Shown: positions 1,302-28,022, counted from the first letter of the stretch. The stretch: 28,022 nt of DNA from Ilumatobacteraceae bacterium (GCA_044348855.1 JBIKSB010000001.1:1-28022); one strand, 5' to 3'. Numbers and translations: made by a program. Notes: generated by a model from the sequence alone, not told the origin.

Positions 1302-1302
1302 T

Positions 1303-3373: not shown

Positions 3374-3409
3374 TTACCTGTTCCGAATTCCTCACGGCAC
3401 ACTAAAGGA

Positions 3410-3580
3410 ATGAGTCCTGAGGTGCGTGCAAAACATGATGCAGCTGTACGAGCGGGTCAAGATTTTTATACAGACCCAGAAACTGGGCTAGTGGTAATGA
3501 CAGCGTTCTACCTCATGCGTCGCGGATACTGCTGTGGCAACATTTGTCGTCACTGCCCCTACGACCGTGGTGAAGAGTAA
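3410..3580 (+). CDS. 56-aa Cys-cluster protein resembling DUF5522 (C1orf53-like)
   Basis: Manual translation MSPEVRAKHDAAVRAGQDFYTDPETGLVVMTAFYLMRRGYCCGNICRHCPYDRGEE*. The YxDPxTG...RGxCCxxxCRHCPY pattern is what I recognise for this family. It fills the 3374-3584 gap. Confidence 0.8.
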   Translation: MSPEVRAKHDAAVRAGQDFYTDPETGLVVMTAFYLMRRGYCCGNICRHCPYDRGEE

Positions 3581-3584
3581 AGAG

Positions 3585-10028: not shown

Positions 10029-10972
10029 TGCGCGTCATTGTTATAGGTGCAGGACTATCTGGCCTCATGGCTGCACATGAACTTGTGCGTAACGGGCATG
10101 ACGTTGTGGTGTTCGATAAAGGGCGCGGAGTAGGTGGTCGATTAGCCACGCGTCGCATTGATGACGCAACACTCGACCATGGTGCTCAATTTTTTACAGT
10201 GCGCACCGATGAGTTTGCAGCGCATGTGAAGAACTGGCGCGATGCGGGCGTCGTGCATGAATGGTGCAAAGGATTTGCAGAGACAGATGGCCATCCGCGT
10301 TATGTGGGATCCAAAGGAATGTCAGGGGTTGCGAAATACCTTGCACAAGGGCTTGACATACGACTCAATTCATTGGTGTTTTCACTCACACGCACTGACA
10401 CACATTTTGTAGTCACCCTCGATGATGGCGTGGTGCATGAATGTGATGGTCTCATCCTTACTGCACCCATTCCACAATCGTTCTCACTGATGTTTTCCGC
10501 AGAGATGGAAATGCCCAAGGATTTACGCTCCATTGATTACGACCGCACACTTGGACTTCTGGCTGTGCTTGACTCCCCCACACACAACGTGCCCGCGCCC
10601 GGCGGTCTGCAGTTTCCCGATGATGTGTTCTCCTTTATTGGGGACAACCAGGCCAAAGGAATTAGTGAGGCACCCTCGCTCACTTTTCATGCCAATCCTG
10701 AGTGGAGCCTGTTGCACTTCGAACGAGATCTCGATGAGATTCACTCACTGCTTCTTGCAGCAGCCATACCTTGGCTTGGCGAGAGCAATGTCGTCTCGAG
10801 CCAGCCCAAGAAGTGGCGGTTCGCAACTCCCAGATCCACGTGGCCCGAACCTTTTTGGGCGACCCCAGATAATCGACTCGTGCTTGCGGGCGATGCATTT
10901 GCGGGGCCGAAGATGGAAGGCGCCGCACTCAGTGGCCTTGCCGCCGCTCGGCATGTGGCAGCCCACCTGTAA
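10028..10972 (+). CDS. FAD-dependent oxidoreductase, renalase-like
   Basis: VIVIGAGLSGL, DKGRGVGGRLATRR, DHGAQFFT, KKWRFA, AGDAF...MEGAALSG. Start overlaps the upstream stop (TAATG). Confidence 0.85.
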   Translation: MRVIVIGAGLSGLMAAHELVRNGHDVVVFDKGRGVGGRLATRRIDDATLDHGAQFFTVRTDEFAAHVKNWRDAGVVHEWCKGFAETDGHPRYVGSKGMSGVAKYLAQGLDIRLNSLVFSLTRTDTHFVVTLDDGVVHECDGLILTAPIPQSFSLMFSAEMEMPKDLRSIDYDRTLGLLAVLDSPTHNVPAPGGLQFPDDVFSFIGDNQAKGISEAPSLTFHANPEWSLLHFERDLDEIHSLLLAAAIPWLGESNVVSSQPKKWRFATPRSTWPEPFWATPDNRLVLAGDAFAGPKMEGAALSGLAAARHVAAHL

Positions 10973-11020
10973 CTGATTGCACCGTACAAAAGGTCTATAC
11001 ATACTCGACCTCTCGTCTAG

Positions 11021-11071
11021 ACTCCTATGGGTCTTTATAGGGACTATTTGTATCCGACTAGCCATAGGAGT
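11021..11071. promoter_or_regulatory. Perfect 10-bp inverted repeat whose 3' arm contains the Shine-Dalgarno of the 774-aa gene
   Basis: ACTCCTATGG (11021-11030) and CCATAGGAGT (11062-11071); AGGAG at 11066-11070; GTG start at 11077. Confidence 0.4.
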
Positions 11072-11076
11072 TCTGC

Positions 11077-13401
11077 GTGCGTCGTCCTTTATCCCTCATT
11101 AGTGCGGCAGTTCTTGCCGCCACCTCTTTAGTTGCGCTGTCGCAGTCACCTGTGAGTGCATCTTCTGCAGCCACCGTGGTGCGTAGTGCAACAACTGCAC
11201 CTGCATCTATTTCAGGTGCCAACACAATGCGTGCGTTGCGCCTTGCGCGATCCAACCAAATGTTCGTGGTGGGGGCAAATATTTCAACCCCTGGATCGGC
11301 CCTTCACCTGTGGAAGGTGAACGATGACCTCTCGATGGATACAACTTTTGGCGCTGTGAGTCTGGGCACAAATTTCACATTGCCAACAGCTGCAAATTCA
11401 ACTTGTGTGGCGAATCCACGTCCTGGGTATACCTGTTCTTTCTTGACAGGCTTTAGCATCAATGAAACTGCTGACAGGTATGCAATCGCTTTTAGTCGTC
11501 AGCTTTCAGGTTCGGGAAACAGGAGCAACATCTCCAACACAATCAACTCGGTTGCCTTGGGCAAAATTTCTACTGGTGAAATCTTGGCATCGGTCAATAT
11601 TGGGTCAGATCAGACGGGACTGCCTCTTTCAGACTGGTCACAATACAATCCCGTCGACATGGGCAAAAATGCATGTACCGCAGCAACTGGCGCAACACTC
11701 AACGGAACTCCACTTGAATATACGTTTCTACTCAGTCTTGCTATTCGCCCTGATGGCTCGCTCATTCTCGGCACTACATGTGACTACTCAAATCGCAACG
11801 TGTTCCCTACGCCAACGTCTATTAATGAATACGAGACAAGTCTTCTCTATGCATTGAAGCCTTCATCGGGAGCGTTGGTGTTGGACACAAGTTTTGGAAC
11901 CAACGGTGTTGTCGTCACATTCAATGACATCACCAAGTGCGGATTTGGCTTTGGAGTGGGGACTATCAATACCGCTCTCACCTCAAATGACTCTCCTGCA
12001 TTGTTTGCACCAATCAATGTCTTGGAATCACCTCGAACCACAACTTTGCCCAGTTGGTTCTCCGGTTATCAAGGCGTGACTTCTTATAGTGGCTGCGAAA
12101 GGGGATTTTCTCCCTCAACATCATCCTCGAAGTTGATCACAATGCAAGCAAACGGAACAATTAAGAACACTCTTTCGTTCCCTAACAACATGTCTTTGAT
12201 GCTTTCCCGATGGGTCATTGACCCACAAGGTCGTTGGAACACCACATCGAGCGCTTCAACGAGTGGTGCGTCTTCTTCTCAAGCCACCTACTTTGTTCGT
12301 CTCACTTCAGATGGCGCCTTTGACACCACAGTGGGAGCAAATGGAATGAAAGAAATGACCAATTTGCCCACAACTGTCACAGTGGGCGGTACGAGCGTAC
12401 GCATGAACTACGATATTTCTGGCTTTGCAACAACTGCAACTGGGATTCTGTTCACCGGATTTGCAAGTGCTATGAATCCCAGCAGCATTGACTGCAGAAA
12501 CCCACCCAATACCACTAACTCTTTGTATCCGTTTTACATAGCCCTTAATACTGGGTTGCTGACAACATACGGAACCGGTGGTCTTGGAGATGCGATCACA
12601 CTGGAATCTCCAGGTAGTGATACGTGCTCATCCAACCTTGCACGCACCTCTTTCATTAATGCAAAAGGTCAGCACATGTACTTTGCGGAAACACGCGCAT
12701 TAGGTGCTCAATCCGCTGGTCTCATGATGGCCACCTGGAACGCTGCCCCAGGAGTCACTGGTGGTGGGGACGGCAGTGGCGCTGTAGGAACTATGAGCCG
12801 TACCGATAACAAGGTGTACTCACGCAAACTGCCTACAACTACCCAAGAAGGCACTGCATTGAAGGTGCTCACCAAGAAAGCCAGCAGAACTCAAATGCTG
12901 CGCTCTACTACTCCAAAAATTTGTGTGACTCTTACCGAAAGCGTCGTACTTGTTGACGAGGGACGTTGCAATGTGCAAATAGTGAACAAAGAAGATCGCC
13001 GCGTTGTGCGCTCACTTTCAACGCGTGTACGCAGCACTGACGTTGAAGTAGGCACAACAGTCGAAGTGGAAGATGCAATTCCATTTGCACGAGTCTCTAC
13101 TCGCCTGTCAAAGGCTGCACAAGAACAAGTTGCAGAACTTGCAGAAAGTGCTGCAACAGCCAAGCGCATCATTCTTGTGGGGCACACTGCTCTTCTCACC
13201 GAAGCAACAGTGTCCAACAACTTCATCTCGCTGCAACGTGCGGCGGCAGTGAAGGCTGCGCTTCAGGCAGAGTTCAAAAAGGCTGGAGTGAATGTTCCTA
13301 TCAGCATCACAGCTCTTGGGTCACGCGCACCACTTACCACTCGAAGTTCTGAGGCTGCACAATCACGTAACCGTCGTGTCGACGTCTACGTGATGCCATA
13401 G
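11077..13401 (+). CDS. Secreted surface protein: signal peptide, DxxFG (delta-60-like) repeats, Cys-pair module, C-terminal OmpA-like domain
   Basis: Signal MRRPLSLISAAVLAATSLVALSQSPVSA; MDTTFG, LDTSFGTNG, FDTTVGANG, LTTYGTGG; C-terminus IPFARVSTRL...LVGHTA...ISLQRAAAVKAAL...LGSRAP...NRRVDV. Confidence 0.8.
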   Translation: MRRPLSLISAAVLAATSLVALSQSPVSASSAATVVRSATTAPASISGANTMRALRLARSNQMFVVGANISTPGSALHLWKVNDDLSMDTTFGAVSLGTNFTLPTAANSTCVANPRPGYTCSFLTGFSINETADRYAIAFSRQLSGSGNRSNISNTINSVALGKISTGEILASVNIGSDQTGLPLSDWSQYNPVDMGKNACTAATGATLNGTPLEYTFLLSLAIRPDGSLILGTTCDYSNRNVFPTPTSINEYETSLLYALKPSSGALVLDTSFGTNGVVVTFNDITKCGFGFGVGTINTALTSNDSPALFAPINVLESPRTTTLPSWFSGYQGVTSYSGCERGFSPSTSSSKLITMQANGTIKNTLSFPNNMSLMLSRWVIDPQGRWNTTSSASTSGASSSQATYFVRLTSDGAFDTTVGANGMKEMTNLPTTVTVGGTSVRMNYDISGFATTATGILFTGFASAMNPSSIDCRNPPNTTNSLYPFYIALNTGLLTTYGTGGLGDAITLESPGSDTCSSNLARTSFINAKGQHMYFAETRALGAQSAGLMMATWNAAPGVTGGGDGSGAVGTMSRTDNKVYSRKLPTTTQEGTALKVLTKKASRTQMLRSTTPKICVTLTESVVLVDEGRCNVQIVNKEDRRVVRSLSTRVRSTDVEVGTTVEVEDAIPFARVSTRLSKAAQEQVAELAESAATAKRIILVGHTALLTEATVSNNFISLQRAAAVKAALQAEFKKAGVNVPISITALGSRAPLTTRSSEAAQSRNRRVDVYVMP

Positions 13402-13425
13402 TTCATTCAAGTAGAGAAACTCGCG

Positions 13426-14403
13426 TTAGGCGACGGTTGCCAACAAGGCGGCCGTCGCCTTTCGCATTGCATCGGTAGTAATGCTTTGCGGCAACGCATC
13501 GCATGCACGTTCAGCTTCATCTACATAGGCGCGTGCACGATCTATTGCTGTGGCTACACCACCATTGGAGCGCACAATATGCAGCACCTTTTCGCGTTCC
13601 ACTTCATTGAGTGGTCGGCCCAAGATAGAACCAAGTTCACTTGCGGCTGCACCACCGGCGGCCAAAGTGTGCAGCACAGGCAATGTGTACACGCCTTCTT
13701 CCATGTCATGGCCGGCGGGCTTGCCTAGTTGTTCATCTGTGGCGGTGAGATCCAACACATCATCCACAATCTGGAACACCATGCCGTATGCCGCACCATA
13801 CGAAGTGAGTGCATCCACAATGGCGCGGTCGTGTCCGGCCACAAGACCACCAATGCGCGCAGCAGTGGAATACAGCGATGCGGTTTTACCGTAGATGGAA
13901 CTCAAGTACGCATCCACCGGGCGTGCCACGTTGTAGGTATGGCGCAACTCTTCAATTTGACCTTCACATAGTTGGCCAATTGTGCGCGCTAGCAATCCCG
14001 CAACTTCGGTACCTAAAGATGCGGCAATTTCTGATGCTTTTGCCAGCAAGAAATCTCCCGCCAAAATCGCTTGAAGATTTCCCCATTTCGCATTCACTGT
14101 GTCCACGCCACGTCGCGTGCTGGATTCATCCATCACATCGTCGTGGTACAAAGATCCCAAGTGCACCAATTCGCACGACACGCCGCCCATGATGGCCTCG
14201 TGTGTTGCGGGGGCATCGTTGCCCACTTGAGATGCAACAATGGCAAAAACTGGTCGCAGACGTTTCCCGCCCGCAGAAATGAGGTGTGACGCAATTTCTG
14301 TCAGATAGGCATCAGGGGTCGTCACGGAGGCCAAAAGAGCATCTTCCACCCTCTGGCGGTCAGAATCCATCGTCGGCAAACCGAGCAGCGGAGAAACAGT
14401 CAC
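13426..14403 (-). CDS. Polyprenyl diphosphate synthase (HepT/IspB-like)
   Basis: GGKRLRP, FARM HDDVMD...RRG, GKTASL, SARM FQIVDDVLD, LGKPAGHD. Confidence 0.93.
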   Translation of the reverse strand: MTVSPLLGLPTMDSDRQRVEDALLASVTTPDAYLTEIASHLISAGGKRLRPVFAIVASQVGNDAPATHEAIMGGVSCELVHLGSLYHDDVMDESSTRRGVDTVNAKWGNLQAILAGDFLLAKASEIAASLGTEVAGLLARTIGQLCEGQIEELRHTYNVARPVDAYLSSIYGKTASLYSTAARIGGLVAGHDRAIVDALTSYGAAYGMVFQIVDDVLDLTATDEQLGKPAGHDMEEGVYTLPVLHTLAAGGAAASELGSILGRPLNEVEREKVLHIVRSNGGVATAIDRARAYVDEAERACDALPQSITTDAMRKATAALLATVA

Positions 14404-14416
14404 ATCCCTGAGGCTA
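14404..14416 (-). promoter_or_regulatory. Leaderless-type -10 element for the polyprenyl synthase
   Basis: TAGCCT (14416-14411), 7 nt, GTG (14403); no SD. Confidence 0.45.
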
Positions 14417-14494
14417 CGAGGTCGGCAGGGTACTTAGCCACTGCGCCGATACACTTCACATCAATATCCACCGAATGAAAACGGGGTGGTCCCA

Positions 14495-17029
14495 TTGTTC
14501 GAACGCTTTACAGACCGGGCCCGAAGGGTCGTTGTTCTTGCCCAAGAAGAGGCGCGTCTCCTCAACCATTCATACATCGGCACCGAGCACATCTTGCTGG
14601 GTCTGATTCATGAAGGCGAAGGCGTTGCAGCCAAGTCACTTGAGTCACTGTCCATCTCGTTGGAAGCCGTACGTGCTCAAGTAGAAGAAATCATTGGCCA
14701 AGGTGGCTCCTCGCCTTCTGGCCACATTCCTTTCACACCACGTGCGAAAAAAGTTCTCGAGCTCTCGTTACGCGAGGCCCTGCAACTTGGCCATAACTAC
14801 ATCGGCACCGAGCACATCTTGCTCGGTCTGTTGCGCGAAGGCGAAGGCGTTGCTACTCAGGTACTCGTCAAGTTGGGTGCAGATCTTGGCAAGGTACGCC
14901 AGCAGGTCATCCAATTGCTCTCTGGCTACCAGGGCCCTGCAGCCAAAGGTGATGCCCCAACTGCAAGCACCGGTGCAGGCAATAAAGAAGATTCTGGCGA
15001 AAAAGGCGGAAGCCAAATTCTCGATCAGTTCGGTCGCAACCTCACACAATTGGCACGCGAGAAAAAACTTGACCCTGTTATCGGTCGCAGTCGCGAACTC
15101 GAGCGTGTCATGCAAATTCTTTCGCGTCGCACAAAGAACAACCCCGTTCTTATCGGTGAGCCTGGTGTAGGTAAAACTGCAATCGTTGAAGGTCTTGCAC
15201 AACGCATCGTCTCTAACGACATTCCAGAAACTCTCAAAGACAAGCAGCTCTACACACTCGACTTGGGTGCACTTGTTGCTGGCTCTCGCTATCGCGGAGA
15301 TTTCGAAGAGCGTTTGAAGAAAGTTCTCAAGGAAATCAAGACACGTGGCGACATCGTGTTGTTCATCGACGAGATCCACACTCTTGTGGGTGCAGGTGCT
15401 GCAGAAGGCGCAATTGATGCGGCCAGCATCTTGAAGCCCATGCTTGCACGTGGCGAGTTGCAAACAATTGGTGCAACCACCACCGATGAATACCGCAAGC
15501 ACTTAGAAAAAGATCCCGCACTTGAGCGTCGCTTTCAGCCAGTGAAAGTAGAAGAGCCCACTGTGGCCCACACCATTGAGATTCTCAAGGGTGTACGCGA
15601 CAAGTACGAATCACATCACCGTGTCACCATCACCGATCAAGCAATTGTGGCTGCTGCCAACTTGGCCGACCGCTACATCTCCGATCGTCATCTTCCCGAC
15701 AAAGCAATCGACCTTATTGACGAGGCGGGATCTCGTTTGCGCATCAAGCGCATGCAGACTCCCCCAGATCTCAAAGAACTCGACGGCAAGATTTCCGAAG
15801 TCCAAGATGCAAAGAAGAAGGCCATTGAAGATCAACGCTTCGAAGAAGCCGGCAATCTGCGCGATCAAGAACGTCAACTGCTGGAGGAAAAGGCCCAAAA
15901 AGAGGCCGATATCAAAGCACAAGGCATCAACTTGTTCGACGAAGTAGATGAAGAAGCAATTGCTGAAGTGTTGAGCATTTGGACAGGAATCCCGGTCTAC
16001 AAACTCACCGAAGAAGAGACCCAAAAGCTTCTCAACATGGAAACCGAGTTGCGCAAGCGCTACATCGGCCAAGACGATGCAGTCAAAGCAGTATCGCAAA
16101 GCATTCGTCGTACGCGTGCGGGATTGAAAGATCCTCGTCGTCCAAGCGGTTCATTCATTTTCTTGGGACCAACTGGTGTAGGTAAGACAGAACTTGCAAA
16201 GACACTTGCAGAGTTCTTGTTCGGTGATGAGCAAGCACTCATCACCCTCGACATGAGTGAATACATGGAGAAGCACACAGTGAGCCGCCTTGTAGGTTCG
16301 CCCCCCGGATACGTGGGATACGAAGAAGGTGGACAACTCACCGAAGCTGTGCGTCGTAAGCCATTCTCTGTGGTGTTGTTTGACGAAATCGAAAAAGCTC
16401 ACCCCGATGTGTTCAACACTTTGTTGCAGATCCTCGAAGAAGGTCGTCTCACCGACAGCCAAGGTCGCAGCGTAGATTTCCGTAACACCGTGCTGATCAT
16501 GACATCCAACTTGGGCACACAAGATTTGCGCAAAGCAAATGTGGGCTTCAACACTGGTGACGAAGCAATGTCGTATGCACGTATGCGTGACAAGGTGAAC
16601 GACGCTCTCAAGGCTCACTTCCGTCCAGAATTCTTGAACCGTGTTGACGAAACCATCGTGTTCCACGAACACGGCAAGCAAGAGATTCTTCAGATGGTGG
16701 ACATGATGACCAAGCGTCTCACCACACAGTTGGAATCGCAAGGCTTGGGAATTGAACTCACACAGGCTGCGAAGGAATTCCTGGCCGAGGTGGGATACGA
16801 CCCCCAATTGGGTGCACGGCCTTTGCGTCGTGCAATCCAACGCCATCTCGAAGATGCACTGTCGGAGAAGATTCTCTACAAACAGTTTGCAGCGGGACAA
16901 ATCATTGTGGCCGATGCCGAAGATGACCCTGAGAATCCTGGCAAGAAGCACATTGTGTTCCGTGCCGTCGAAGGATTTGTTGCACCAAGCGAACCACCAT
17001 TGGTGGGTGACGGCGACACTGTCGACTAA
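14495..17029 (+). CDS. clpC: ATP-dependent Clp protease ATP-binding subunit ClpC
   Basis: [21 protein letters not shown] (ClpC1-type start from TTG 14495), two Clp-N repeats [13 protein letters not shown], Walker A GEPGVGKT and [11 protein letters not shown]-like middle segment, [12 protein letters not shown]. Confidence 0.97.
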
Positions 17030-17032
17030 CAC

Positions 17033-17833
17033 TTGTTTGTGTTGACATCATTTAAGAAGCAAAGCGCAACCATTGGTGTTGTGCTGTGTGCACTGTTGTT
17101 TTTGTCGTCCTGTCGTGTCGACCAAACAATTTCACTTGAAGTCAACCGCAATGGAACAGGCAAGGTCATCGTGACCGCAGTTGCGAACAAGGCAATCTTG
17201 GATGCAGCACCTGAATTGGCTGCCGACATCCGCACCGATGATCTTGTGACTGCGGGATGGAAAGTGGATGGCCCTACCCCCACCGAAGATGGTGGCCTAC
17301 GCCTTGAGATAAGTCGCAGTTTTAAGGACGCAGCCGAAGCCACGGTCATATTGGGCCAAGTCAACGGTCCTCGTGGGCCACTTCAAGAAGCCGTGTTAAC
17401 CCGCAGTGGCAAGGACACCAACAGTGTGTGGACACTTGCGGGCCGTCTCGAAGTCAACGGAGGGCTACAGGCCTTTGTGGACGATGCTGCCTTTGAGTTA
17501 TTGGGCGCAGCCCCCTATGCCGCAGAAATTGAAGAAGCTGGCCTTGACCTTGGCGCAGCCGTTGGGCTCAACTTCACTGTGTCCCTCCCCGGAAATGTGG
17601 AATCCACCACCGGTGTGCAAAACGACGGCACGATCTCGTGGCTCGTTCCAATGGATGGCTCTCGCGTCGACATTGCCACCTCATCTACCAATGTGGATGT
17701 TGTCTCAAGTGTTGCTGGCGTAGGTCGTGTGTTGTTGCTGGCCCTATTGGTTCTGTGGATTGTGGGCATGGCTATCTTGCTACTGCTGGTGCTCAATGCG
17801 AAGCAGCGACGCACTCGCACACCCCGCATCTAA
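17033..17833 (+). CDS. Putative lipoprotein with C-terminal transmembrane helix (LppM-like layout)
   Basis: Lipobox LFLSSC, beta-rich body (FTVSLPGNVESTTG...ISWLVPMDG), C-terminal hydrophobic helix plus KQRRTR; 3 nt after clpC and 9 nt before radA. Confidence 0.65.
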   Translation: MFVLTSFKKQSATIGVVLCALLFLSSCRVDQTISLEVNRNGTGKVIVTAVANKAILDAAPELAADIRTDDLVTAGWKVDGPTPTEDGGLRLEISRSFKDAAEATVILGQVNGPRGPLQEAVLTRSGKDTNSVWTLAGRLEVNGGLQAFVDDAAFELLGAAPYAAEIEEAGLDLGAAVGLNFTVSLPGNVESTTGVQNDGTISWLVPMDGSRVDIATSSTNVDVVSSVAGVGRVLLLALLVLWIVGMAILLLLVLNAKQRRTRTPRI

Positions 17834-17842
17834 GGTGACGTT

Positions 17843-19237
17843 GTGGCAAAACTACGACTCGTCCATCGCTGTACTGAATGTGCCGCTTCATTTCCCAAGT
17901 GGTCCGGAAAATGTCTTGCCTGCGGTGCGTGGAACTCTCTTGTAGAAGATGTCGAAGGCCCCGAAGAATCTCTCGTCACATTGGCTGCAGGTCTTGCATT
18001 GGTTCCCCCAGGAACAGCAACTCCCATTGCAGATGTCAACTCACATGAAAGTGATCCCATCTCTACTGGTCTGGGCGAACTAGATCGTGTGCTCGGTGGG
18101 GGTTTAGTTCCAGGTTCAGTCACTTTGTTGGGTGGCGAGCCAGGTATTGGCAAAAGCACCGTGTTACTACAACTGCTTGCTCACACAACAGGTGCCACGT
18201 TGTATGTCACCGCCGAAGAAAGTGCTCAACAAGTACGTCTGCGCGCAGATCGTCTCGGTGCACTGCGTCCAGATCTCTGGCTTTTACCCGAGATGTCATT
18301 GCCCAACATCATTTCGTCTATCGACACCATCTCGCCATCGTTGGTGGTGATTGATTCCATTCAAACCGTGGTGGACCCCGAACTGGGGTCATCACCAGGT
18401 TCGGTTGTGCAAGTGCGTGGATGTGCACATCGACTTGTACAAGAAGCCAAACGACGCAACATCAGCATTGTGATTGTCGGTCATGTCACCAAAGAAGGTG
18501 GCCTTGCAGGTCCGCGTGTTCTTGAACATGTGGTTGACACTGTGTTGTCTTTCGAAGGCGAACGACACCATGCATTGCGATTGCTACGTGCAGTGAAACA
18601 CCGTTTTGGTCCCACTAATGAGTTAGGTCTTTTTGAAATGACCGAACAAGGTCTGGTGGGTATTCCCGATGCAAGTCAACTCTTCCTTACCGATCGCCGC
18701 ACAGGAGTTCCTGGCTCAGTAGTAGTCCCCACTATCGAAGGCCAAAGACCAGTTCTCGTAGAACTACAGACACTCACCAATCAAGTCAACAGTGGTGTTC
18801 CAGCGCGACGCAGTGCACAAGGAATAGACCAGGGTCGTCTTTCTATGTTGCTAGCAGTATTAGAACGTCGTGCGCGTATCAGCCTTGTGGGCCAAGAGGT
18901 GTATGCATCAGTTGTAGGTGGAGTCAAACTTGGTGAACCCGCCGCAGATTTGGGTTTATGCCTTGCACTTGTCTCTGCCACATCAAATGTGCCACTTCCT
19001 GCAGATCTTGTTGTTGTAGGAGAAGTGGGGCTCGCCGGCGAGGTGCGACAAGTGGGTCATCTTGGTCGACGACTTACCGAGGCTGCGCGACTTGGTTTTG
19101 CCCAAGCCATCGTTCCTGCAAGTGCACCACAAGATATTGCTAAGGGAATTAGTGGTATCACCGTGAAGCGGGCCAGCACATTAAATGAGGCACTTGCTCT
19201 TGCTGGTCTTGTGGGCCATGCACCAGTGGGCAACTAG
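17843..19237 (+). CDS. radA: DNA repair protein RadA/Sms
   Basis: C4 zinc finger CTEC...KCLAC, Walker A GGEPGIGKST, VIDSIQT, GHVTKEG...AGPRVLEHVVD, KHRFG motif, Lon-like C-terminus GEVGLAGEVR. Confidence 0.96.
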   Translation: MAKLRLVHRCTECAASFPKWSGKCLACGAWNSLVEDVEGPEESLVTLAAGLALVPPGTATPIADVNSHESDPISTGLGELDRVLGGGLVPGSVTLLGGEPGIGKSTVLLQLLAHTTGATLYVTAEESAQQVRLRADRLGALRPDLWLLPEMSLPNIISSIDTISPSLVVIDSIQTVVDPELGSSPGSVVQVRGCAHRLVQEAKRRNISIVIVGHVTKEGGLAGPRVLEHVVDTVLSFEGERHHALRLLRAVKHRFGPTNELGLFEMTEQGLVGIPDASQLFLTDRRTGVPGSVVVPTIEGQRPVLVELQTLTNQVNSGVPARRSAQGIDQGRLSMLLAVLERRARISLVGQEVYASVVGGVKLGEPAADLGLCLALVSATSNVPLPADLVVVGEVGLAGEVRQVGHLGRRLTEAARLGFAQAIVPASAPQDIAKGISGITVKRASTLNEALALAGLVGHAPVGN

Positions 19238-19251
19238 TTGCAGTCACCAAC

Positions 19252-19263
19252 TACACTGAACCA
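19252..19263 (+). promoter_or_regulatory. Leaderless-type -10 element for tetR
   Basis: TACACT (19252-19257), 6 nt, ATG 19264; no SD. Confidence 0.5.
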
Positions 19264-19908
19264 ATGCCTCGAGAGTCTGCAAAACGCGTAGTGGAAGTAG
19301 ACGGTCGTCGTCGTCGTCCATGGGCACTGGCTTCTCAAGAAAACCTTTTGAATGCCGCAATTGAAGAGATCGCATCTGTGGGATTCGAGCGAGCTCGGTT
19401 GATAGACATTGCAAAAAGGGCCGGAATGACGGCGGGTTCTGTCTACACCTGGTTTGAGAACAAAGAGGAACTTTTTCAGGCAGCCCTACAACATGCACTG
19501 ACGGAGCAGTTGAAAAAGAATGCGGACGCACTGAGTAACGCCGACATCGAGAATTCTTTTCTTCTACAAATTGCGCAATTGGTTCCCCGCAACCACACCG
19601 ACGATCGCCCCACAGACGCTCAGCAACTTCTTATCGAGTGTTACTACGCATCTTGGCGTGACCCACGTGCACGCGAAAGGCTCATGTCAGGAATTGAATC
19701 GCAATTGCAGATGTATGTCTCCATTTTTGAAGATGGTCAACAACAAGGAATTGTTACCAAAGAAGTGAGCGCTACGGTTCTAGGCACATTTCTTCTCTCC
19801 ATCCACACGGGCTTGGCAATGTTGAGTCTGGCGGGGATTCCTCGCATTAGCGACAAGGAATGGGTCTCTATGTATGCACTTCTTGCCGACTCTTTTGGTG
19901 CCAAGTAA
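19264..19908 (+). CDS. TetR/AcrR-family transcriptional regulator
   Basis: LLNAAIEEIASVGFERARLIDIAKRAGMTAGSVYTWFENKEELF (TetR HTH). Confidence 0.9.
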   Translation: MPRESAKRVVEVDGRRRRPWALASQENLLNAAIEEIASVGFERARLIDIAKRAGMTAGSVYTWFENKEELFQAALQHALTEQLKKNADALSNADIENSFLLQIAQLVPRNHTDDRPTDAQQLLIECYYASWRDPRARERLMSGIESQLQMYVSIFEDGQQQGIVTKEVSATVLGTFLLSIHTGLAMLSLAGIPRISDKEWVSMYALLADSFGAK

Positions 19909-19956
19909 CAAATACATTCCATACCATCACAGACTGTGGCAAATGGGTATCGCGCC

Positions 19957-19968
19957 TACGCTTATGTC
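19957..19968 (+). promoter_or_regulatory. Leaderless-type -10 element for yceI-like gene
   Basis: TACGCT (19957-19962), 6 nt, ATG 19969. Confidence 0.5.
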
Positions 19969-20670
19969 ATGAAGAAATCCTTGCGATACGCAATAGTCGC
20001 ACTCGTAGTTGTGGGACTTGGACTTGTGGCAGGACCGTGGGCATATATCAATCTCATCAAAGATGATGCTCCTGCGGCTCTCACCATTGACGACGACAGC
20101 GATGCAACAATTCCTTCTGGATCTCTTGATGAAGAAGACATCACAATCCACAATGGGCAATGGTTTGTTGCTTCTGGAAGTGAATCAGTTGTGGGCTATC
20201 GCGTGAAAGAAATTCTCTTTGGTCAAAGCACCGAAGGTGTGGGGCGCACACGTGAAGTTGAGGGCAATCTCACCATTGCGAATAACCAAGTCACCAACGT
20301 TGCTTTTACTGTCCAAATGGGAACGCTTACCAGTGATGCCGCTAATCGAGACCGTCAATTCAACGGCCGCATCATGGACACCTCTACATATCCCACAGCT
20401 GCATTTACGCTCACCCAACCCATTGCCTTACCAGCCAATGCCATTTCGGGAGAAATCATCAACGTAACTGCACAAGGTGATCTCACACTTCGTGGCACAA
20501 CCAGAACAGTTCAATTTCCGCTACAAGCACAGGTTGAAGGTGCAACATTTACTGTTGTGGGCAACATCACCATTGTGTTCGATGAATGGGGAATTCCAGA
20601 ACCCAGCCTTCCAGGTATCAACGTAGAACCCGATGGACTCCTCGAGTTCTCCCTCGTCTTTGGACGTTGA
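19969..20670 (+). CDS. YceI-family (lipid/polyisoprenoid-binding) protein with N-terminal membrane anchor
   Basis: N-terminal hydrophobic helix; SVVGYRVKE, TSDAANRD, YPTAAF, GDLTLRGTTRTV, EWGI. Start ATG 19969 (MKKSLRYAIV). Confidence 0.85.
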   Translation: MKKSLRYAIVALVVVGLGLVAGPWAYINLIKDDAPAALTIDDDSDATIPSGSLDEEDITIHNGQWFVASGSESVVGYRVKEILFGQSTEGVGRTREVEGNLTIANNQVTNVAFTVQMGTLTSDAANRDRQFNGRIMDTSTYPTAAFTLTQPIALPANAISGEIINVTAQGDLTLRGTTRTVQFPLQAQVEGATFTVVGNITIVFDEWGIPEPSLPGINVEPDGLLEFSLVFGR

Positions 20671-20686
20671 GTCAACAGTATGAGGA

Positions 20687-22204
20687 TTAAGGGACCAAGA
20701 ATATTTCTGCGCGACGGTTCACAGATTGCTTTTCCTCGCTCCTGGATTTTGTAAGAGGACTAGACCCACCAAAACTCCAGATTGCAATGGTCTGACGAGC
20801 ACCACGACCACGCAACAAACTACGCACCGATGTCGCACGACGCTGCGAGAGCGACACCATATTTGAGTTCTCTCCCGACAGATTGCCTGTATGGCCAGTG
20901 ACCAAAATTGAACTGGCCCGTCGTGCTTCTGGCATCAATGCATCAATATCTCGCAGGGATGCAGCAGTAGGAGTCACTCTTCCATTTGCAAAATAAATAA
21001 CTGTGGGTTTTGCCACTGCCACCACGCCCTCGGACGGCACCACTTCACCGGTCACAACGCGAGTGGTGACTGTGCGCACGATGCGGCCATTGCGTCGTGT
21101 GACGATTTGAGCGCGACAACGACCTTTTTTAATAAACACGATGCTTCTATCAGAGCCCAAACACACAGTGGGCGTTAGCGAATTGATGTAGTAGGTGCGA
21201 TTTTGTGCAGAGGTCATCAGGCTGAGTGCAGACATTTCTACTCTGCTCGATCCCATTGAGGTAAAGACAGGCCCTGTCTCCACTGATTCGGTGGGCGCAC
21301 TATTGGCTTGACCTCTAAATGAACTCCACGGCGTAGTGGTAGTTGTAGTTGTCGTGGTGGTGCTCATTGCTTTGGCTGCAGCCATTGCTGCTGCTCCCCC
21401 AGGTGGAACCACTCCAGGAACTCCAGGCCCTGTGAAGTACACACCATAAAAACGACCTGCAATCAATTGGGGATCACCAAACGTCATAGTCGTCATGGCA
21501 AAGTCAGAACCTTTGAAGGTCTTGTTACTCCAAGTACTAGAAGTAGGACACCTCGACAAGTTCACCATAGAAGTCCCCAATGGCGATGTGCTCACAATGG
21601 TGTTGCCATCACCAGACATTTCATAGAGAAGTGCATACAACTCGAAACGTGGTGTTCCACTTGGTGCAAGACATGCCATGGACATACGGAACTGAGTGAG
21701 AGCACCATTTGTTCCTGCAAGAAATACCTGGCCAAAACCACTTGCGTTGAAGCAATCAAACAATGTGAGTGGCGATTTACCAAAATCACCGCTTGTGGCC
21801 GCCGGTGAACTACAGCCAGTTGAGCCCACTGGCTTCCCACCTGCATACGCAGTGGGGTTTGCCCATCGGATATAGCGCGCAGCAGGTGTCGTTGCAGCCT
21901 GTGCAGCACCGTTAATGCGGTAATCGAACACAAAGTTACATGTCTTGGTGGATGCCGACATTGAACTTCCCGAGCAGTTGTTTGCTGTGATGCCGTCTGT
22001 CTCTAAAAACGATGCGGAGTGGCCCGCAGGGTTACGAGGTTCATCCCATGAGAAGTTGAATGCAATGTTGGCTCCACCTGGCCCTGCTTCGGTTGCCGAG
22101 ACGGGTGATTCCCAAGACGGGATGACCGCTCCTGAAACTGCACACGCCGTCGCCAAGACAACGCCACGCTTCCACATATTCATTTTCTTCTTCATCATCG
22201 TCAT
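20687..22204 (-). CDS. Secreted surface protein: signal peptide, Cys-rich passenger, Thr-rich linker, Cys-pair module, C-terminal OmpA-like domain
   Basis: Signal ...KRGVVLATACAVSGAVIPSWESPVSA; C-terminus IYFANG...LVTGHTG...LSQRRATSVRSLL...SFGGSSP...NRRAEI. Exact start among several Mets is uncertain. Confidence 0.8.
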   Translation of the reverse strand: MTMMKKKMNMWKRGVVLATACAVSGAVIPSWESPVSATEAGPGGANIAFNFSWDEPRNPAGHSASFLETDGITANNCSGSSMSASTKTCNFVFDYRINGAAQAATTPAARYIRWANPTAYAGGKPVGSTGCSSPAATSGDFGKSPLTLFDCFNASGFGQVFLAGTNGALTQFRMSMACLAPSGTPRFELYALLYEMSGDGNTIVSTSPLGTSMVNLSRCPTSSTWSNKTFKGSDFAMTTMTFGDPQLIAGRFYGVYFTGPGVPGVVPPGGAAAMAAAKAMSTTTTTTTTTTPWSSFRGQANSAPTESVETGPVFTSMGSSRVEMSALSLMTSAQNRTYYINSLTPTVCLGSDRSIVFIKKGRCRAQIVTRRNGRIVRTVTTRVVTGEVVPSEGVVAVAKPTVIYFANGRVTPTAASLRDIDALMPEARRASSILVTGHTGNLSGENSNMVSLSQRRATSVRSLLRGRGARQTIAIWSFGGSSPLTKSRSEEKQSVNRRAEIFLVP

Positions 22205-22249
22205 CTCTCGTTCTGCAGTCTGTCTATCTTTACAAATCTTTTTGCCACA

Positions 22250-25200
22250 TCACCCATAGAAGGGTTCGGTGCTAATGGCCACTCGCCTCTCGCGAGCTGT
22301 ATTCCATGGACTTCTCACACCTGCGTGGCCCTGATAGGTCACCCATTGGCGCACGCCCAACGTTGTCAAATATTTTGCCACCACTTCAGCGCGTTTTTGC
22401 GCCAGGGATTCAAGGCGCCACGCACTAGCAATCTCGCCATTTTGTGCAAATCCCGTGACGTAGACCAGTCCACCTTGGCGTATCACGGCACGCGCCGCCT
22501 GCCGCAGAGACGCCTTCATTGAATTGGTCAATGTGCTTGAACCACGGGCAAAGATCAAAGAACTTGGCACTTCAACGCCGCGAATCTGAGGATTGCCGTC
22601 GACCGCTGCCCAATCAAAGGTGTTGCCTTGGGTCACATTCACTCCACTTGGTCCACCTCGAGAAATACCGATGTCATTGGCGAACTGCACACTCACGCGC
22701 ACGTTACGTCGTGCATAAGGAACTGTGACCGCGGTTGTTGGGTTAGACGGATCAACTTTCACATTGATGCGTGCCAAAACTCTTCCGGTATTTGACGAGA
22801 CAGTGATGATTGCATGAGTGACGGGAATGGCTGCATCTTGTACTGCGCGCATTGCTGTGACTCGGGTAGATCTTCCACCTGCGACGCTTTGTGTAGATAC
22901 ACGAGCCGGCGCAGGAGGTAGAACCTGGGGTGCAGAGAGACGCAATACTGGTTGCTCTGCCGATGAAGTAGCAGTTTCAGCACGGAAGTCCATCCATGCT
23001 GTCACTGCAGTAATGATGGTGGCGGTGGTAGTGGGTTGTGTCACCACGTAGTTCACACCGTCAACACCTGTTACCGCTACTCCAGTAATTCGCACAGTCT
23101 TGTTAGATCCCACTTGTGCATCAATAAAGTTGCCCACAGCATTTGTTGTATCAATGGCTACAACGTCGTTGTTGAGTACTCCATTTATTGAAGCACTCGC
23201 CACCGAAATAGTTGCACTTGTGGTGCCATCAAAAATCTTGTCGGCTGCTGTAATTCCCGACACTGTGAGTGAACGTGGGGTAATTGATGCAGTAGCTGTT
23301 GGCTGTCGTAAGCGGTAGTTACTTGAGTCCACTCCTGACAGTTCAAAACCAGCCAAAGTCACAGCCTTATTCGCACCCACATTCTTGTTGGCAAATGATG
23401 CAATCACTGCTCCCGTGACAACGGAAACGTCGTCTCCCTGCACAGTGTTCGTCAACGAAGAACCTGCGGTATTCACTAGTGCTGTCGCAGCATTTGTTCC
23501 GTTGTATTCGCGTGATGCAACGGTAAAACCAGTCACCGAGACTTCTCGTCGCACGATGTTTGCCGTCATCGAGGGCTGCTGAAGTACATAGTTGTCAGAT
23601 TGAATTCCTGTAAGCGCAAGACCAGTCACTGTCACCGGCTTGTTTGTGTCCACGACAGGTGTTGCGAATTCAGCCCGTAAAGCGTTCGGAGAAATTTCCA
23701 CTACATCGGGACTGACAACACCCACAAGAGTTGCTTGGGTCATGTCAATAACTGGCGACGCATCAATTGATCCGTCATATATATGATCCTGGGCCGTCAT
23801 ACCACTGACCGAAAGGGACTTACGTGTAATTGAACCGGTTGTTGTGATCGGAGTGAGTGCGTAATTCGCTGCCTTGGGTCCAGCAATCGTCACACCAGTC
23901 ACTGTGATTAGCTTGTCCTGGCCTGCGGCACCAGTGGCAAAAGCTCCATCAAAACTGCCTGTGAGCAACGACACTCCATCTCCCGTCACTACACCGTTCA
24001 ACTGCGCGCCAGCGACACTCAAGATCGATCTTGCATTCAAGTACAAGAGCCCGTTGTACTCGCGCGAGTTTGTAGTAACAATGCCAGTGACCGTCAAAGG
24101 TTGCACAAGAATTGATGATCGCACCGTAAAGTCCGGTACCCAGTAATTCTGACCGTCAGCACCACCGGCCGTGATTCCGGTAATGGTCACTGACTTGTCG
24201 TTGCCGACGAGTGCATCATTGAATCGCCCATGCACACTTGTTGCAACGAGGGTGACAACATCGTTGGCAACTACACCAGAAAAACTTGCTCCTACAGTTT
24301 CCACCACGGCGATGTCATTTCCGTTGTAGCGCCGTGGCGCAACAGTGACTCCCACTGGCTCCAAAGGTGCCTTAGTGATTGATCCCACCACATCAAGAGG
24401 TGCTGCCAACGTGTATCGGTGTGCATGGATACCAGACAACGACAATCCGTCGATGGTGACTGGCTTATTCACATCAACCGTCTTCGTTGCAAAAGAACCG
24501 GTTGCACCCCCCCAGACAAGCGCAACACTATCTGCTCCCACAACCCCACTGAATTGGGCCGAATTGAATCGGAGTTGCGATGTTGCATTGCGTGACCCGT
24601 CATATTCACGACTCACCGTTGTCACACCCGACAAAGTCAACATCTTTTGCGACACGGTAAAGCTACGCACCATACTTGAGCCACTAGCTGCAGTTGCAGA
24701 CAGATAATTAATGTTTCCGGCTTGTTCTGCAACAAGAGTGCACGTACCCACACTGACGAGACGAATCGTCAATGGTGTTGGCACATCACACACGCTGGTA
24801 TCCAAAGATGACACAGAAACCGCGAGACCAGATGTTGCCGTTGGTGACACTGCAAATGAATCATCACCATAGGTTTTGGTGGTGATAGATGCAAAGGCCA
24901 ATTGTTGGGTGGACTTCGCAATTGTGATCTTGATTGTCTGGCTTGTTTTGCTAACAAAGTTCAGGTCTGCTGCACGAGTGACTGCAACCGTGCATTCACC
25001 TGCAGTGAGAGCGGTCACGGTGGTTCCGGAAATGGCACACACCGTGTTACCCGTGACGACGGCGTATGTAACCGCTCCGGTTCCACTTCCCGCAGAACCT
25101 GCAGGCATGGACAAAGTGGTAGTCGCCTGTGATGGAGCAGGACTGAAGATGAGACCAGAGGTAGCCGCCGACACAGCAAGAGCTTCTTGTTGAGCTTGGG

Positions 25201-28022
25201 TGATTGTCAATACGCCTGCGATATATGACACTTCGTAGTTGTTGATATTGCCTACCGACAATGAAAGAGCCGATGGGGTGATCAAATAACTGCCACGGTT
25301 TACAGGGGCTGTTATTGAATCTGGATATGCCGTTGAACCAGTTCCCGAATAGGTAAAGATCACTTGATCTGTTGCATCACTACCCACTAAATCAGTGGAG
25401 GTAAACATCGGAATGAATGCATTGCCGTACACGGCTTCACGATCAGTAGCGGTGATCACGATGGCTTTTCTATCTACTCGTAGCGTCACTGTACGGGTTT
25501 CAATTGCGTAGTTAGCCGACAACGGTGTGAAGGTGACGGACAACGTGTGATTGCCCGCATTTAGGCGCGTTCCTGCCGTGGGGCTGTATGCCCACGTACC
25601 GTTCACCGAGGCAGTTGCATTGAGTTGCGTACCTCCAAGAGTGGTGCCAAAAACCACCGCTGTGGGTGTTGTCCAAGCAAGACCTGATGTTGCCTGGTTA
25701 ATTGAAGCAGTGGTTGTTGGTTGAGTCACTGTGTAGTTCGCAGCTTTCGATCCCTGTAACGCAACGGATGCAAATGTCACAAGCTTGTTGTCCTGCGCAT
25801 TAGCGTCACTAAATCTCGCTGTGAACCCAGTGAGAGCAATCGACACATCATCAGAGAAAGAAATTCCATTCAGTGAAGCGCTAGTGAGATCTCCGGCGGC
25901 GGTATCGCTACCGTCATAGAACTTGTCTGATGCACGTGCTCCTGTAATCGTCAAGTTTTTGGGAGAAATAGTAAAGGTACGGCTAAGCGCTGAACCAGAT
26001 GCTGCTGTTGCAGACAAGTAGTTGATGGTTCCTGCTTGTGATGCTGTAAGGGAGCACTGTCCTGCGTTCACGATGGTCACCGTGGCGCTAGAGACGCCGC
26101 CTGACAAAGTTGAAGCCCCCACTGAACACACACTTGAATTTGCTGAAAATGACACCGTTAAACCCGAGGTAACAGTTGCTGTCACGACAAACGATGCATC
26201 GCCATATGTCTTGGGTGTCAAGGCATCAAAGGTGATTGTTTGGGATGCCCTATTAATGGTGTAGTTGAGCTCACTAGAAACCTGCTGATTGAAGTTCACA
26301 CTTGTTGCTCTTGTGGCAGTCACCTTGCATACACCAGCAGTGAGGGCAGTAAGGGTAGATCCATTCACCGAACACACAGATGGAGTCGATGTCACTGCAT
26401 AGGTGAAAGCCCCATCGCCGTCTCCTCCATCGCCCACCAATGTGGTAGTCGCAAAGTTGGGCCCAGGTTGCCAGATAAGAGTTGAGTCAGTGGTACTCAC
26501 CGTGACTGTTGACTGTGTTGCGCGCGTAATCGAGAAGGCACCGTCAATGTAGACAAACGAATAGTTGCCTGCACTTGCACCAGTACAGGTAACCGCTGGC
26601 CTTGTTCCTGCATCTGAAGTAGACGTGTACGAAGTTGCACATGTCGGTTGCACTGTCAGAACCGATGTTGATTCACCATTTGCAAAACCTGTCACTGTTG
26701 GTCTTAATACAGGTGACTGATCTCCGTACGTGACCTCCGGTGATGGCGCCGTGACTGTCAATTGCTTCTTACCGATAGTTACCACGCCCGATGTATATGA
26801 GAAGGAGTAATTGCTGGCAACTGCACCCGAACACGAGGTCGACTCTGAACCAAATCCACTAGTAGTGAGGTACGTCGTTGAACATGTAGCCAAAGTAGAG
26901 AACACAGACGAATTCTGACCATTCATAAATCCCGAATACGAAGGGGTCACTGTCGGCACTGCATCGCCATATATCGCGGTATGCGAGGAAGCAGTTACTG
27001 TGATTAACTTCTTCGTCACGTTGACAGCACCTGCCACGTAGGTGAACGAGTAATTATCTGCTGTTGCACCAGTGCACGACGTGCCAGGCAAGGACCCCAC
27101 ATTTGATATCGCTGAATAGGCGGTTGTGCACGTAGTCCCCGACACAACTGCTGAAGTGTCTCCGTACACAAAATCGTTGGAGTATGACGGCGTCACTGTG
27201 GGGATGGGGTCCCCATATGTCACCATCGGTGAAGATGCAGTCACCACGATGCCTTTTTTAGTGATGGAAGCGGTGCCTGCGGCGTAATGGAACGAGTAAT
27301 TAGACGACGATCCCGATGAGAGCGTCACCGACGACGGTGTAATTGAGTACGACCCCACATTGACTGGCCGCAAGGTTGATGCGGCATACGAAGTCTGACC
27401 GGTCCCCTCATAGGTATAGATCACCGATAACACAGCATCACTATTTGCAAGACCATTGACTGTAACGGACTGCCCTAGTGCCACTCCGTAGACCTCGGTC
27501 TGATGATTCGCAGTAATGGTGACTTGTGCCCGTACCACACTGACTACTCCATCAAGATAAATGAAGGAATAGTTATCCGCAGAGCCACCTGCACAACGTG
27601 TATACGGCGCCGAACCCACAGCCGAAGTCACCGTGTAACTCGTAGTGCAGGTGGGAACGACACTGAGAACTGACTGCGTCTCGCTGTTGACAAATCCAGC
27701 GAATAGTGGCGCAACGGTGACCGTATTTACTGCTGCGCCATAGGGTGCTGCAGGAGATGACGCAGTCACCGTGAGACTCTTGCGATTAATCGTGATCGCA
27801 CCAGGGCTGTACGTAAACGAATAGTTCGCAGCTGTTGCACCCGAACATGACGTTGCAATACCACTGCTAGAAAACGGTGTTGTAGTTGTGTACGCCGTTG
27901 AACACGTCGGAGCAGATGTCAACACAGCTGACGTCTGACTATTCACAAAACCCACATACGACGGCGTCACCGTCGGCGTCGCATCACCATAAGTCACCGT
28001 ATGTGACGACGCAGTCACAACC
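22250..28022 (-). CDS. Giant repetitive adhesin-like surface protein (MBG, Ig-like and YDG repeats) with C-terminal OmpA-like domain; 5' end lies beyond the window
   Basis: Frame is open to the right edge (>1922 aa). Repeats TVTASS...YGD...NYSF, and 7 units of the K/RxY(D/N)G...NKxVT...NY type. C-terminus LIFARGSSTL...VTGFAQ...LAQKRAEVVAKYL...RRVAI. Confidence 0.85.
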   Translation of the reverse strand, partial: VVTASSHTVTYGDATPTVTPSYVGFVNSQTSAVLTSAPTCSTAYTTTTPFSSSGIATSCSGATAANYSFTYSPGAITINRKSLTVTASSPAAPYGAAVNTVTVAPLFAGFVNSETQSVLSVVPTCTTSYTVTSAVGSAPYTRCAGGSADNYSFIYLDGVVSVVRAQVTITANHQTEVYGVALGQSVTVNGLANSDAVLSVIYTYEGTGQTSYAASTLRPVNVGSYSITPSSVTLSSGSSSNYSFHYAAGTASITKKGIVVTASSPMVTYGDPIPTVTPSYSNDFVYGDTSAVVSGTTCTTAYSAISNVGSLPGTSCTGATADNYSFTYVAGAVNVTKKLITVTASSHTAIYGDAVPTVTPSYSGFMNGQNSSVFSTLATCSTTYLTTSGFGSESTSCSGAVASNYSFSYTSGVVTIGKKQLTVTAPSPEVTYGDQSPVLRPTVTGFANGESTSVLTVQPTCATSYTSTSDAGTRPAVTCTGASAGNYSFVYIDGAFSITRATQSTVTVSTTDSTLIWQPGPNFATTTLVGDGGDGDGAFTYAVTSTPSVCSVNGSTLTALTAGVCKVTATRATSVNFNQQVSSELNYTINRASQTITFDALTPKTYGDASFVVTATVTSGLTVSFSANSSVCSVGASTLSGGVSSATVTIVNAGQCSLTASQAGTINYLSATAASGSALSRTFTISPKNLTITGARASDKFYDGSDTAAGDLTSASLNGISFSDDVSIALTGFTARFSDANAQDNKLVTFASVALQGSKAANYTVTQPTTTASINQATSGLAWTTPTAVVFGTTLGGTQLNATASVNGTWAYSPTAGTRLNAGNHTLSVTFTPLSANYAIETRTVTLRVDRKAIVITATDREAVYGNAFIPMFTSTDLVGSDATDQVIFTYSGTGSTAYPDSITAPVNRGSYLITPSALSLSVGNINNYEVSYIAGVLTITQAQQEALAVSAATSGLIFSPAPSQATTTLSMPAGSAGSGTGAVTYAVVTGNTVCAISGTTVTALTAGECTVAVTRAADLNFVSKTSQTIKITIAKSTQQLAFASITTKTYGDDSFAVSPTATSGLAVSVSSLDTSVCDVPTPLTIRLVSVGTCTLVAEQAGNINYLSATAASGSSMVRSFTVSQKMLTLSGVTTVSREYDGSRNATSQLRFNSAQFSGVVGADSVALVWGGATGSFATKTVDVNKPVTIDGLSLSGIHAHRYTLAAPLDVVGSITKAPLEPVGVTVAPRRYNGNDIAVVETVGASFSGVVANDVVTLVATSVHGRFNDALVGNDKSVTITGITAGGADGQNYWVPDFTVRSSILVQPLTVTGIVTTNSREYNGLLYLNARSILSVAGAQLNGVVTGDGVSLLTGSFDGAFATGAAGQDKLITVTGVTIAGPKAANYALTPITTTGSITRKSLSVSGMTAQDHIYDGSIDASPVIDMTQATLVGVVSPDVVEISPNALRAEFATPVVDTNKPVTVTGLALTGIQSDNYVLQQPSMTANIVRREVSVTGFTVASREYNGTNAATALVNTAGSSLTNTVQGDDVSVVTGAVIASFANKNVGANKAVTLAGFELSGVDSSNYRLRQPTATASITPRSLTVSGITAADKIFDGTTSATISVASASINGVLNNDVVAIDTTNAVGNFIDAQVGSNKTVRITGVAVTGVDGVNYVVTQPTTTATIITAVTAWMDFRAETATSSAEQPVLRLSAPQVLPPAPARVSTQSVAGGRSTRVTAMRAVQDAAIPVTHAIITVSSNTGRVLARINVKVDPSNPTTAVTVPYARRNVRVSVQFANDIGISRGGPSGVNVTQGNTFDWAAVDGNPQIRGVEVPSSLIFARGSSTLTNSMKASLRQAARAVIRQGGLVYVTGFAQNGEIASAWRLESLAQKRAEVVAKYLTTLGVRQWVTYQGHAGVRSPWNTARERRVAISTEPFYG
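23010..28022 (-). repeat. Protein-level domain repeat array (about 80-95 aa units; boundaries approximate)
   Basis: 6 tandem MBG-like units (~28022-26513), Ig-like pair, 1 YDG, 1 WTTP-type unit, 1 MBG, Ig-like pair, 6 tandem YDG units (~24645-23010). Units are diverged at DNA level. Confidence 0.8.

Follow-up and report, generated by a model that had tools for sequence, protein, structure and literature searches.

A lineage-restricted C-terminal Ig and OmpA-like cassette stands behind unrelated, exchangeable heads in an Ilumatobacteraceae bacterium

The stretch of DNA analysed here (the window) comprises 28,022 nucleotides from an Ilumatobacteraceae bacterium (GCA_044348855.1 JBIKSB010000001.1:1-28022) and is contig C234 of a metagenome-assembled genome (MAG) of 1.29 Mb in 241 contigs, 57.5% complete, with 51.7% GC. 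Three of its open reading frames (ORFs), encoding the proteins P0001, P0002 and P0003, end in OmpA-like domains, as a first-pass annotation had proposed, and all three exceed the PF00691 gathering cut-off of 27.2 bits (Pfam scores of 36.5, 36.5 and 34.5 bits, respectively). In P0001 and P0002 the OmpA-like domain is preceded by an immunoglobulin (Ig)-like module carrying two cysteines, and the two together form the C-terminal unit termed here the class-A cassette. The features at the locus are:

11077..13401, + strand: P0001, 774 aa, predicted secreted; signal peptide, DUF5122/delta-60-type beta-propeller head, Gly-rich linker and class-A Ig+OmpA cassette
11077..11160, + strand: P0001 signal peptide, aa 1-28, with SPVSA end; basic N-region, hydrophobic core and VSA cleavage motif
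12790..13044, + strand: P0001 Big_2-like Ig module; Cys pair C616/C631; family hidden Markov model (HMM) E=5e-30
13084..13374, + strand: P0001 OmpA-like domain; GHTA (13180-13191) replaces GHTD and Arg721 of LQRA is retained
20687..22204, - strand: P0002, 505 aa, predicted secreted; signal peptide aa 1-37 (SPVSA end), head, poly-Thr linker (21332-21361) and class-A cassette
21041..21286, - strand: P0002 Big_2-like Ig module; Cys pair C348/C363
20714..20962, - strand: P0002 OmpA-like domain; GHTG at 20885-20896
22250..28021, - strand: P0003, C-terminal part (1923 aa) of a giant protein with YDG/MBG_2 repeats; 5' end open at the contig edge
22253..22945, - strand: P0003 class-B cassette; a different beta-module plus OmpA-like domain (GFAQ, ERRV)
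10951..13423, no strand: single-gene segment with P0001, missing from an otherwise colinear relative at ~80% DNA identity

P0001 and P0002 align exclusively through their last 187 residues (32% identity, E=8e-21), with no alignment elsewhere, in agreement with the paralogous cassette recognised in the first-pass annotation. The C-terminal location given there holds but the start does not, as conservation in an alignment of 88 cassettes begins about 20 residues earlier, at a TDxKVY motif, placing the outer limits near nt 12790 in P0001 and near nt 21286 in P0002. The strings quoted for the two cassettes, their PLT...SE..QS.NRR...P ending and the SPVSA ends of the signal peptides are all found in the translations; the SPVSA match is real, yet five residues at a signal-peptidase site are no evidence of common descent. 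A profile built from the two cassettes and searched against 1.84 billion representative proteins returns 7657 matches at E<1e-3, which represent the OmpA superfamily at large, and the N-terminal Cys module is also present in about 100 top representatives (clusters at 50% identity). In every one of these ~100 representatives only ~110-125 residues, the size of an OmpA-like domain, separate the Cys module from the C-terminus. In the 88-cassette alignment five columns never vary, namely both Cys, an intervening Gly, the GH glycine and the LSxxRA arginine, and PF00691 is matched by 65 of the 68 family members scanned with Pfam. AlphaFold2 predicts the whole cassette, from the same 88 sequences, as one confident body (predicted local distance difference test, pLDDT, 93.3; predicted template-modelling score, pTM, 0.87). 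Conserved as a unit, the cassette stands strictly at the C-terminus, behind unrelated heads.

The C-terminal half of the predicted cassette superposes on PA0833, Acinetobacter baumannii OmpA, OprF, Pal, YfiB and TssL, with template-modelling (TM) scores, normalised by target, of 0.66-0.81 (Foldseek; the matches 6jfw, 3td3/4/5, 5u1h and 2hqs have E values of ~6e-8 to 3e-6). Similarly, the cassette profile matches OmpA-like Protein Data Bank (PDB) entries by sequence to E=2e-15, including Bacillus-type MotB/MotS and Mycobacterium tuberculosis Rv0899. These PDB matches start at about position 70 with the two-sequence profile, or at about 78-100 with the 88-sequence profile, and cover the OmpA half only. 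Whole-cassette fold searches are dominated by the same half, and the N-terminal module was folded separately.

Folded alone, the N-terminal module is predicted as a seven-strand beta-sandwich (pLDDT 87.6). Its best matches in the AlphaFold database are annotated BIG2 domains with TM scores of 0.60-0.73 (top E=1.4e-4, TM 0.68), while its best PDB matches, with Z of 5.7-8.5, are Ig-like domains of S-layer proteins, Leptospira LigA, a Big_2-CBM56 pair, intimin and lambda gpV; those to Big_2-CBM56 (7quz), gpV (2l04) and LigA lie at Z 6.3-7.6 and offer moderate support only. By structural modelling the Cys module is thus a divergent Big_2-like Ig domain. Across the 88 sequences it is matched by no Pfam or NCBIfam model, and the Big_2 profile (PF02368) finds none of them even at E up to 10. 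The Cys-x14-Cys pair is invariant (88/88 members), lies on neighbouring strand regions of the predicted model and probably forms a disulfide. The claim of a new anchoring system was overstated, the binding half being PF00691 and the Cys module having a Big_2-like fold. The OmpA-like binding domain and the Ig fold are already known, and there is no new anchoring principle. What is new is a defined Ig(Cys-Cys)+Asp-less-OmpA cassette, limited to a few streamlined Ilumatobacteraceae-type genera, on which heads are exchanged.

A 1222-aa ORF elsewhere in the genome (G000:C226:3838-7503, - strand) has Cys-rich CPxGTY-type repeats and a C-terminal lone two-Cys Ig module (family HMM E=1e-5) with no OmpA domain; the two-Cys Ig module therefore also exists alone.

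The giant protein P0003, which had been placed on the same anchor, does not align with the cassette of P0001 and P0002 and a shared class-A cassette is ruled out. Instead, it ends in a class-B cassette of ~230 aa, formed by a beta-module and an OmpA-like domain with GFAQ/GLAR/GFAR and E/DRRV motifs, that is common to three large repeat proteins (P0003, G000:C140, at L001:1432-3198, - strand, and G000:C41, at L002:1444-3228, - strand) at 27-29% identity; whole-cassette matches of class B elsewhere come from one sister genus only. The remainder of P0003 consists of YDG and MBG_2 repeats (Pfam), and the syntenic orthologue encoded on a metagenome contig of 72 kb has 4915 aa. The four VC...GxC modules noted inside P0003 in the first-pass annotation are present, but their likeness to the cassette Ig module is weak: two of the four give domain E values of 3e-6 and 2e-5 when this protein alone is searched, and against the whole genome the E value is 0.93. 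The 5' end of the P0003 gene within the window (27756-28021) matches ~10 tandem copies of a ~250-nt repeat in a relative (L006:2183-5649) at 72-85% identity, and these tandem repeats of the giant gene are the likely cause of the contig break at the window edge.

BLAST sorts the heads that the representatives carry in front of the class-A cassette into 13 classes. Among the 68 members scanned with Pfam, RCC1-type propellers are the most frequent (16), followed by DUF5122 propellers of the P0001 type (12), PD40 (7), EPTP (4), fn3 (4) and TIG (3), with BNR, beta-helix and other heads at 1-2 each. The assignment of the P0001 head is supported by its homologues, which match DUF5122 at best with 2e-21. 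The P0002 head matches no family and gives sub-threshold leads only in the ESM Atlas (lectin-like and DUF4082, 0.82-0.89). P0002 orthologues of ~500 aa are conserved across many samples. The cassette tree requires 24 changes of head class, a number between the minimum possible of 11 and the shuffled mean of 44.8; therefore cassettes and heads partly co-travel but have repeatedly re-assorted. Fifteen pairs combine cassettes at least 75% identical with heads lacking any similarity, one of them with 100% identical cassettes. The shared C-terminus could in principle mean no more than that two OmpA-family genes are paralogues, without any modularity, and this would suit both the presence of only two copies in this genome and the DUF5122 head class, which forms nearly one clade on the cassette tree (3 changes). 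The excess of head-class changes over the minimum, the near-identical cassettes with unrelated heads and a replacement at one syntenic locus make such an explanation highly implausible.

That replacement involves P0135, of 883 aa, whose head gives weak matches to DUF5122 and He_PIG, and P0139, of 528 aa; the gene of each is flanked by hisC-TetR on one side and an HhH-GPD gene on the other. The two heads are unrelated, while the signal peptide and cassette have 82-87% protein identity. Comparison of P0135 with two of the P0139-carrying contigs reveals 82-89% DNA identity over the first 40 codons, which is lost across the head and returns at the start of the cassette, the non-matching head stretch measuring 1853 nt in one allele and 788 nt in the other. 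From these sequences the pair appears as a clean replacement of the passenger, with signal peptide and anchor conserved on either side. With ~100 clusters, 13 head classes and this allelic replacement, the modular unit with swappable heads suggested in the first-pass annotation is well supported. One close relative (L006) has no gene in the P0001 slot, which is flanked by amine oxidase and polyprenyl synthase genes, while in five congeneric species (L102-L106) the slot holds a P0001-type gene whose product is 37-48% identical, compared with 70-95% for the flanking proteins; the neighbouring ClpC is 93-95% identical in the congeners. The P0001 slot thus looks like a hypervariable one-gene islet.

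These observations bear on whether the proteins reach outward at all. They might instead reside in the wall zone, for example as enzymes, binding proteins or envelope organisers located beneath or inside the wall, and the head variation would then represent ordinary divergence. Monoderm OmpA-like domains such as MotB, recovered among the PDB matches, act near the membrane, most heads are beta-propellers, a fold that can act as enzyme or as binding module, and P0002 is a conserved orthologue in many samples. However, neither the replacement of a whole head at a fixed locus nor the low identity of P0001 orthologues relative to the flanking proteins is readily explained in this way, and the long Thr/Gly-rich linkers, like the giant repeat proteins on the sister cassette, are better suited to exposed, diversifying surface proteins. 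A residence confined to the wall zone is therefore considered improbable, and variable heads displayed on the wall are the preferred reading.

The family is taxonomically narrow. Among 400 other genomes of the host family, covering 61 genera, the Ig module occurs in 29 genomes of 3 genera (13/19 genomes of the host genus, 15/20 of a second and 1/4 of a third). A sample of the class (401 genomes including this one) contains it in 9, and a sample of the phylum (401 genomes including this one) in 2, namely this genome and one of the same genus. Module-bearing genomes are all small (1.6-2.3 Mb) and have 1-4 matches each; in the 1.29-Mb assembly, searches with cassette and Ig-module HMMs recover two copies only, P0001 and P0002. 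The first-pass expectation of a genome-wide expansion and a range across Actinomycetota are both rejected, the former by these copy numbers and the latter by the 3/61 genera of one family and the single same-genus match among 400 genomes of the phylum. The ~100 clusters reflect population and species diversity within a narrow lineage. Named MAGs in which the cassette is complete bear Acidimicrobiaceae or Ilumatobacteraceae labels, in a taxon list that is biased, as the locus search used a 13-sequence alignment and the QxxNRRV pattern only. The cassette is also present in four MAG records (CAYVAV01, CAZENK01, CAYRUT01 and CAYXRQ01; L010-L012, L019) titled 'uncultured Bifidobacterium sp.', a label that looks wrong.

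The host is probably a monoderm actinobacterium, as previously proposed, because Omp85 (PF01103) is absent from this genome (57% complete) and from five relatives that are 96-100% complete, in a search that detected it in 7 diderms used as control. Three WhiB genes are present in the genome. Cultured Acidimicrobiia of a neighbouring family (Iamiaceae, not the host genus) are Gram-positive with mostly meso-diaminopimelate (meso-DAP) (PMC12263773). A regular-expression search over all genome ORFs finds no LPXTG motif, transmembrane segment or basic tail at the C-terminus of P0001, P0002 or P0003, and Pfam finds no SLH match in the three proteins, as had been stated for them. By the same search, an LPXTG-type tail is found in 0/5 OmpA-ending proteins of the genome. 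The genome also has one sortase gene (G000:C195:1203-1562, + strand) and three clustered LPXTG-type proteins (G000:C126, ORFs 1-393, 1115-2311 and 2648-4378, + strand), with LPATG, LPETG and LPTTG followed by a transmembrane segment and a basic tail. Judged by its gene content, the genome appears to combine covalent (sortase) and OmpA-type anchoring. The sortase independence claimed earlier would hold for the OmpA-ending proteins themselves but does not extend to the organism, which has a sortase and at least three LPXTG-type substrates.

Taken together, P0001 and P0002 are probably Sec-exported proteins of a monoderm member of the Acidimicrobiia (Ilumatobacteraceae-type) whose variable heads are held on the cell's own peptidoglycan by a lineage-specific cassette. 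After export by Sec and cleavage of the signal peptide behind VSA, the Ig-OmpA body would fold outside the membrane and bind the sacculus non-covalently. The Big_2-like Ig domain, probably disulfide-locked, would pack rigidly onto the OmpA-like domain, and a flexible Thr/Gly-rich linker would let the head reach outward. The wall-binding step is proposed because of the membership of the OmpA family and of a precedent in which red fluorescent protein (RFP) with the E. coli OmpA C-domain behind it was held on lactic-acid-bacterial peptidoglycan particles (PMC11150769). At the population level, the conserved signal peptide and cassette would bracket the head and act as homology arms, such that recombination at fixed loci could replace whole heads and yield variation of exposed surface proteins, possibly under phage or grazer pressure. 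A stronger version, in which the signal peptide and cassette constitute a dedicated display scaffold with its ends serving as recombination arms and the Asp-less OmpA-like domain recognising a lineage-specific wall feature, is tentative; if true, the lineage would have an anchoring chemistry of its own, independent of sortase and linked to programmed surface variation.

Several points weigh against wall-anchored display of variable heads. A crude signal-peptide rule is passed by 58/85 family members only, partly through truncated sequences; the label 'adhesin' is a guess, since the P0002 head has no recognisable function; and VKOR is not found in the 57%-complete genome, where a DsbA-like match is weak only, which bears on the predicted disulfide. 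The main reason for caution regarding peptidoglycan binding, however, is a missing Asp. On the motif of the family we take Asp271 of A. baumannii OmpA to be the D of GHTD and Arg286 to be the R of LSxxRA. Both residues contact diaminopimelate (PMC5974059). In HMMER alignments the family GH[ST]x stands opposite the GYTD/GHTD of YiaD, TssL and YfiB, and the Asp271-equivalent is Gly in 56 cassettes, Ala in 29, Thr in 2 and His in 1, with Asp in 0/88, as fits the earlier description of the domain as atypical. The Asp is likewise missing in the other OmpA-ending proteins of the genome (class-B GFAQ, GLAR and GFAR). With the DAP-contacting Asp absent, binding may be weak or directed at a different ligand. 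The domain could then recognise a secondary wall polymer or a modified stem, leaving the cassette an anchor with a new specificity, and this would account for the replacement of Asp throughout both cassette classes; the tightly packed Ig module (pTM 0.87) could add to the binding surface. Yet all 88 members retain the DAP-contacting Arg of LSxxRA (alignment column R159), conservation extends to the Asn of NxxLS and to NRR, the overall OmpA fold is canonical and no evidence was found for an alternative ligand. A different ligand is accordingly regarded as unlikely, and attachment to peptidoglycan remains the preferred reading.

Bacteria that lack an outer membrane are already known to have OmpA-like domains, as in MotB and, in the mycolate-diderm case, in ArfA. 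In aquatic bacteria, polymorphic and recombining surface-protein loci occur in flexible genomic islands; the loci described here have the same conserved ends, replaced middles and faster divergence than their flanks, with the difference that the 3' arm is itself the anchoring cassette. With the PF00691 group (Pal, the OmpA and OprF C-domains, YiaD, YfiB, TssL/TagL, MotB/MotS and ArfA Rv0899) the cassette shares fold, sequence family and the conserved Arg, Asn and NRR, and the expected common role is to hold proteins non-covalently on the sacculus. In contrast to that group, the cassette ends Sec-secreted multi-domain proteins with no membrane or lipid anchor, in a host without Omp85, lacks the canonical Asp in every member and always stands behind a dedicated two-Cys Ig domain. 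The absence of Omp85/BamA from the host also sets it apart from diderm outer-membrane tethers of the OmpA/Pal type. The Ig module has the same beta-sandwich fold as the Big_2 (PF02368) domains of intimin/invasin, LigA/B, S-layer proteins and lambda gpV, and is likely a rigid spacer, but differs from them in the lack of a Pfam or NCBIfam match, the invariant Cys-x14-Cys and the fixed orientation to the OmpA-like domain.

Sortase/LPXTG proteins display the same layout of signal peptide, variable passenger, low-complexity stalk and C-terminal wall-attachment element, whereas attachment through the cassette would be non-covalent and sortase-independent. The non-covalent modules of monoderms (LysM, SH3b, GW, CWB1/2, SLH and PG_binding_1) follow the same strategy with varied passengers but have different folds. 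OmpA-like domains are rarely counted among Gram-positive wall anchors, and a 2018 review of monoderm surface display mentions OmpA 0 times (PMC5817068). The cassette defined here is searchable in abundant uncultured freshwater actinobacteria, where it can mark hypervariable surface loci of these populations, and its two-Cys Ig module is a gap to fill in Pfam and NCBIfam. With ~210 aa the cassette is also a compact candidate tag for display on monoderm walls and a natural test of the contribution of the canonical Asp to ligand choice.

Elsewhere in the window, a 283-aa protein encoded at 1246-2097 (+ strand) ends in PG_binding_1 (PF01471, E=1.6e-10), another non-covalent wall-binding module. 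TetR-family regulator genes are found near cassette genes at two unrelated loci, at 19264-19908 in the window and directly upstream of P0135/P0139, and this proximity may represent coincidence or shared regulation. A YceI gene stands between the TetR gene of the window and P0002.

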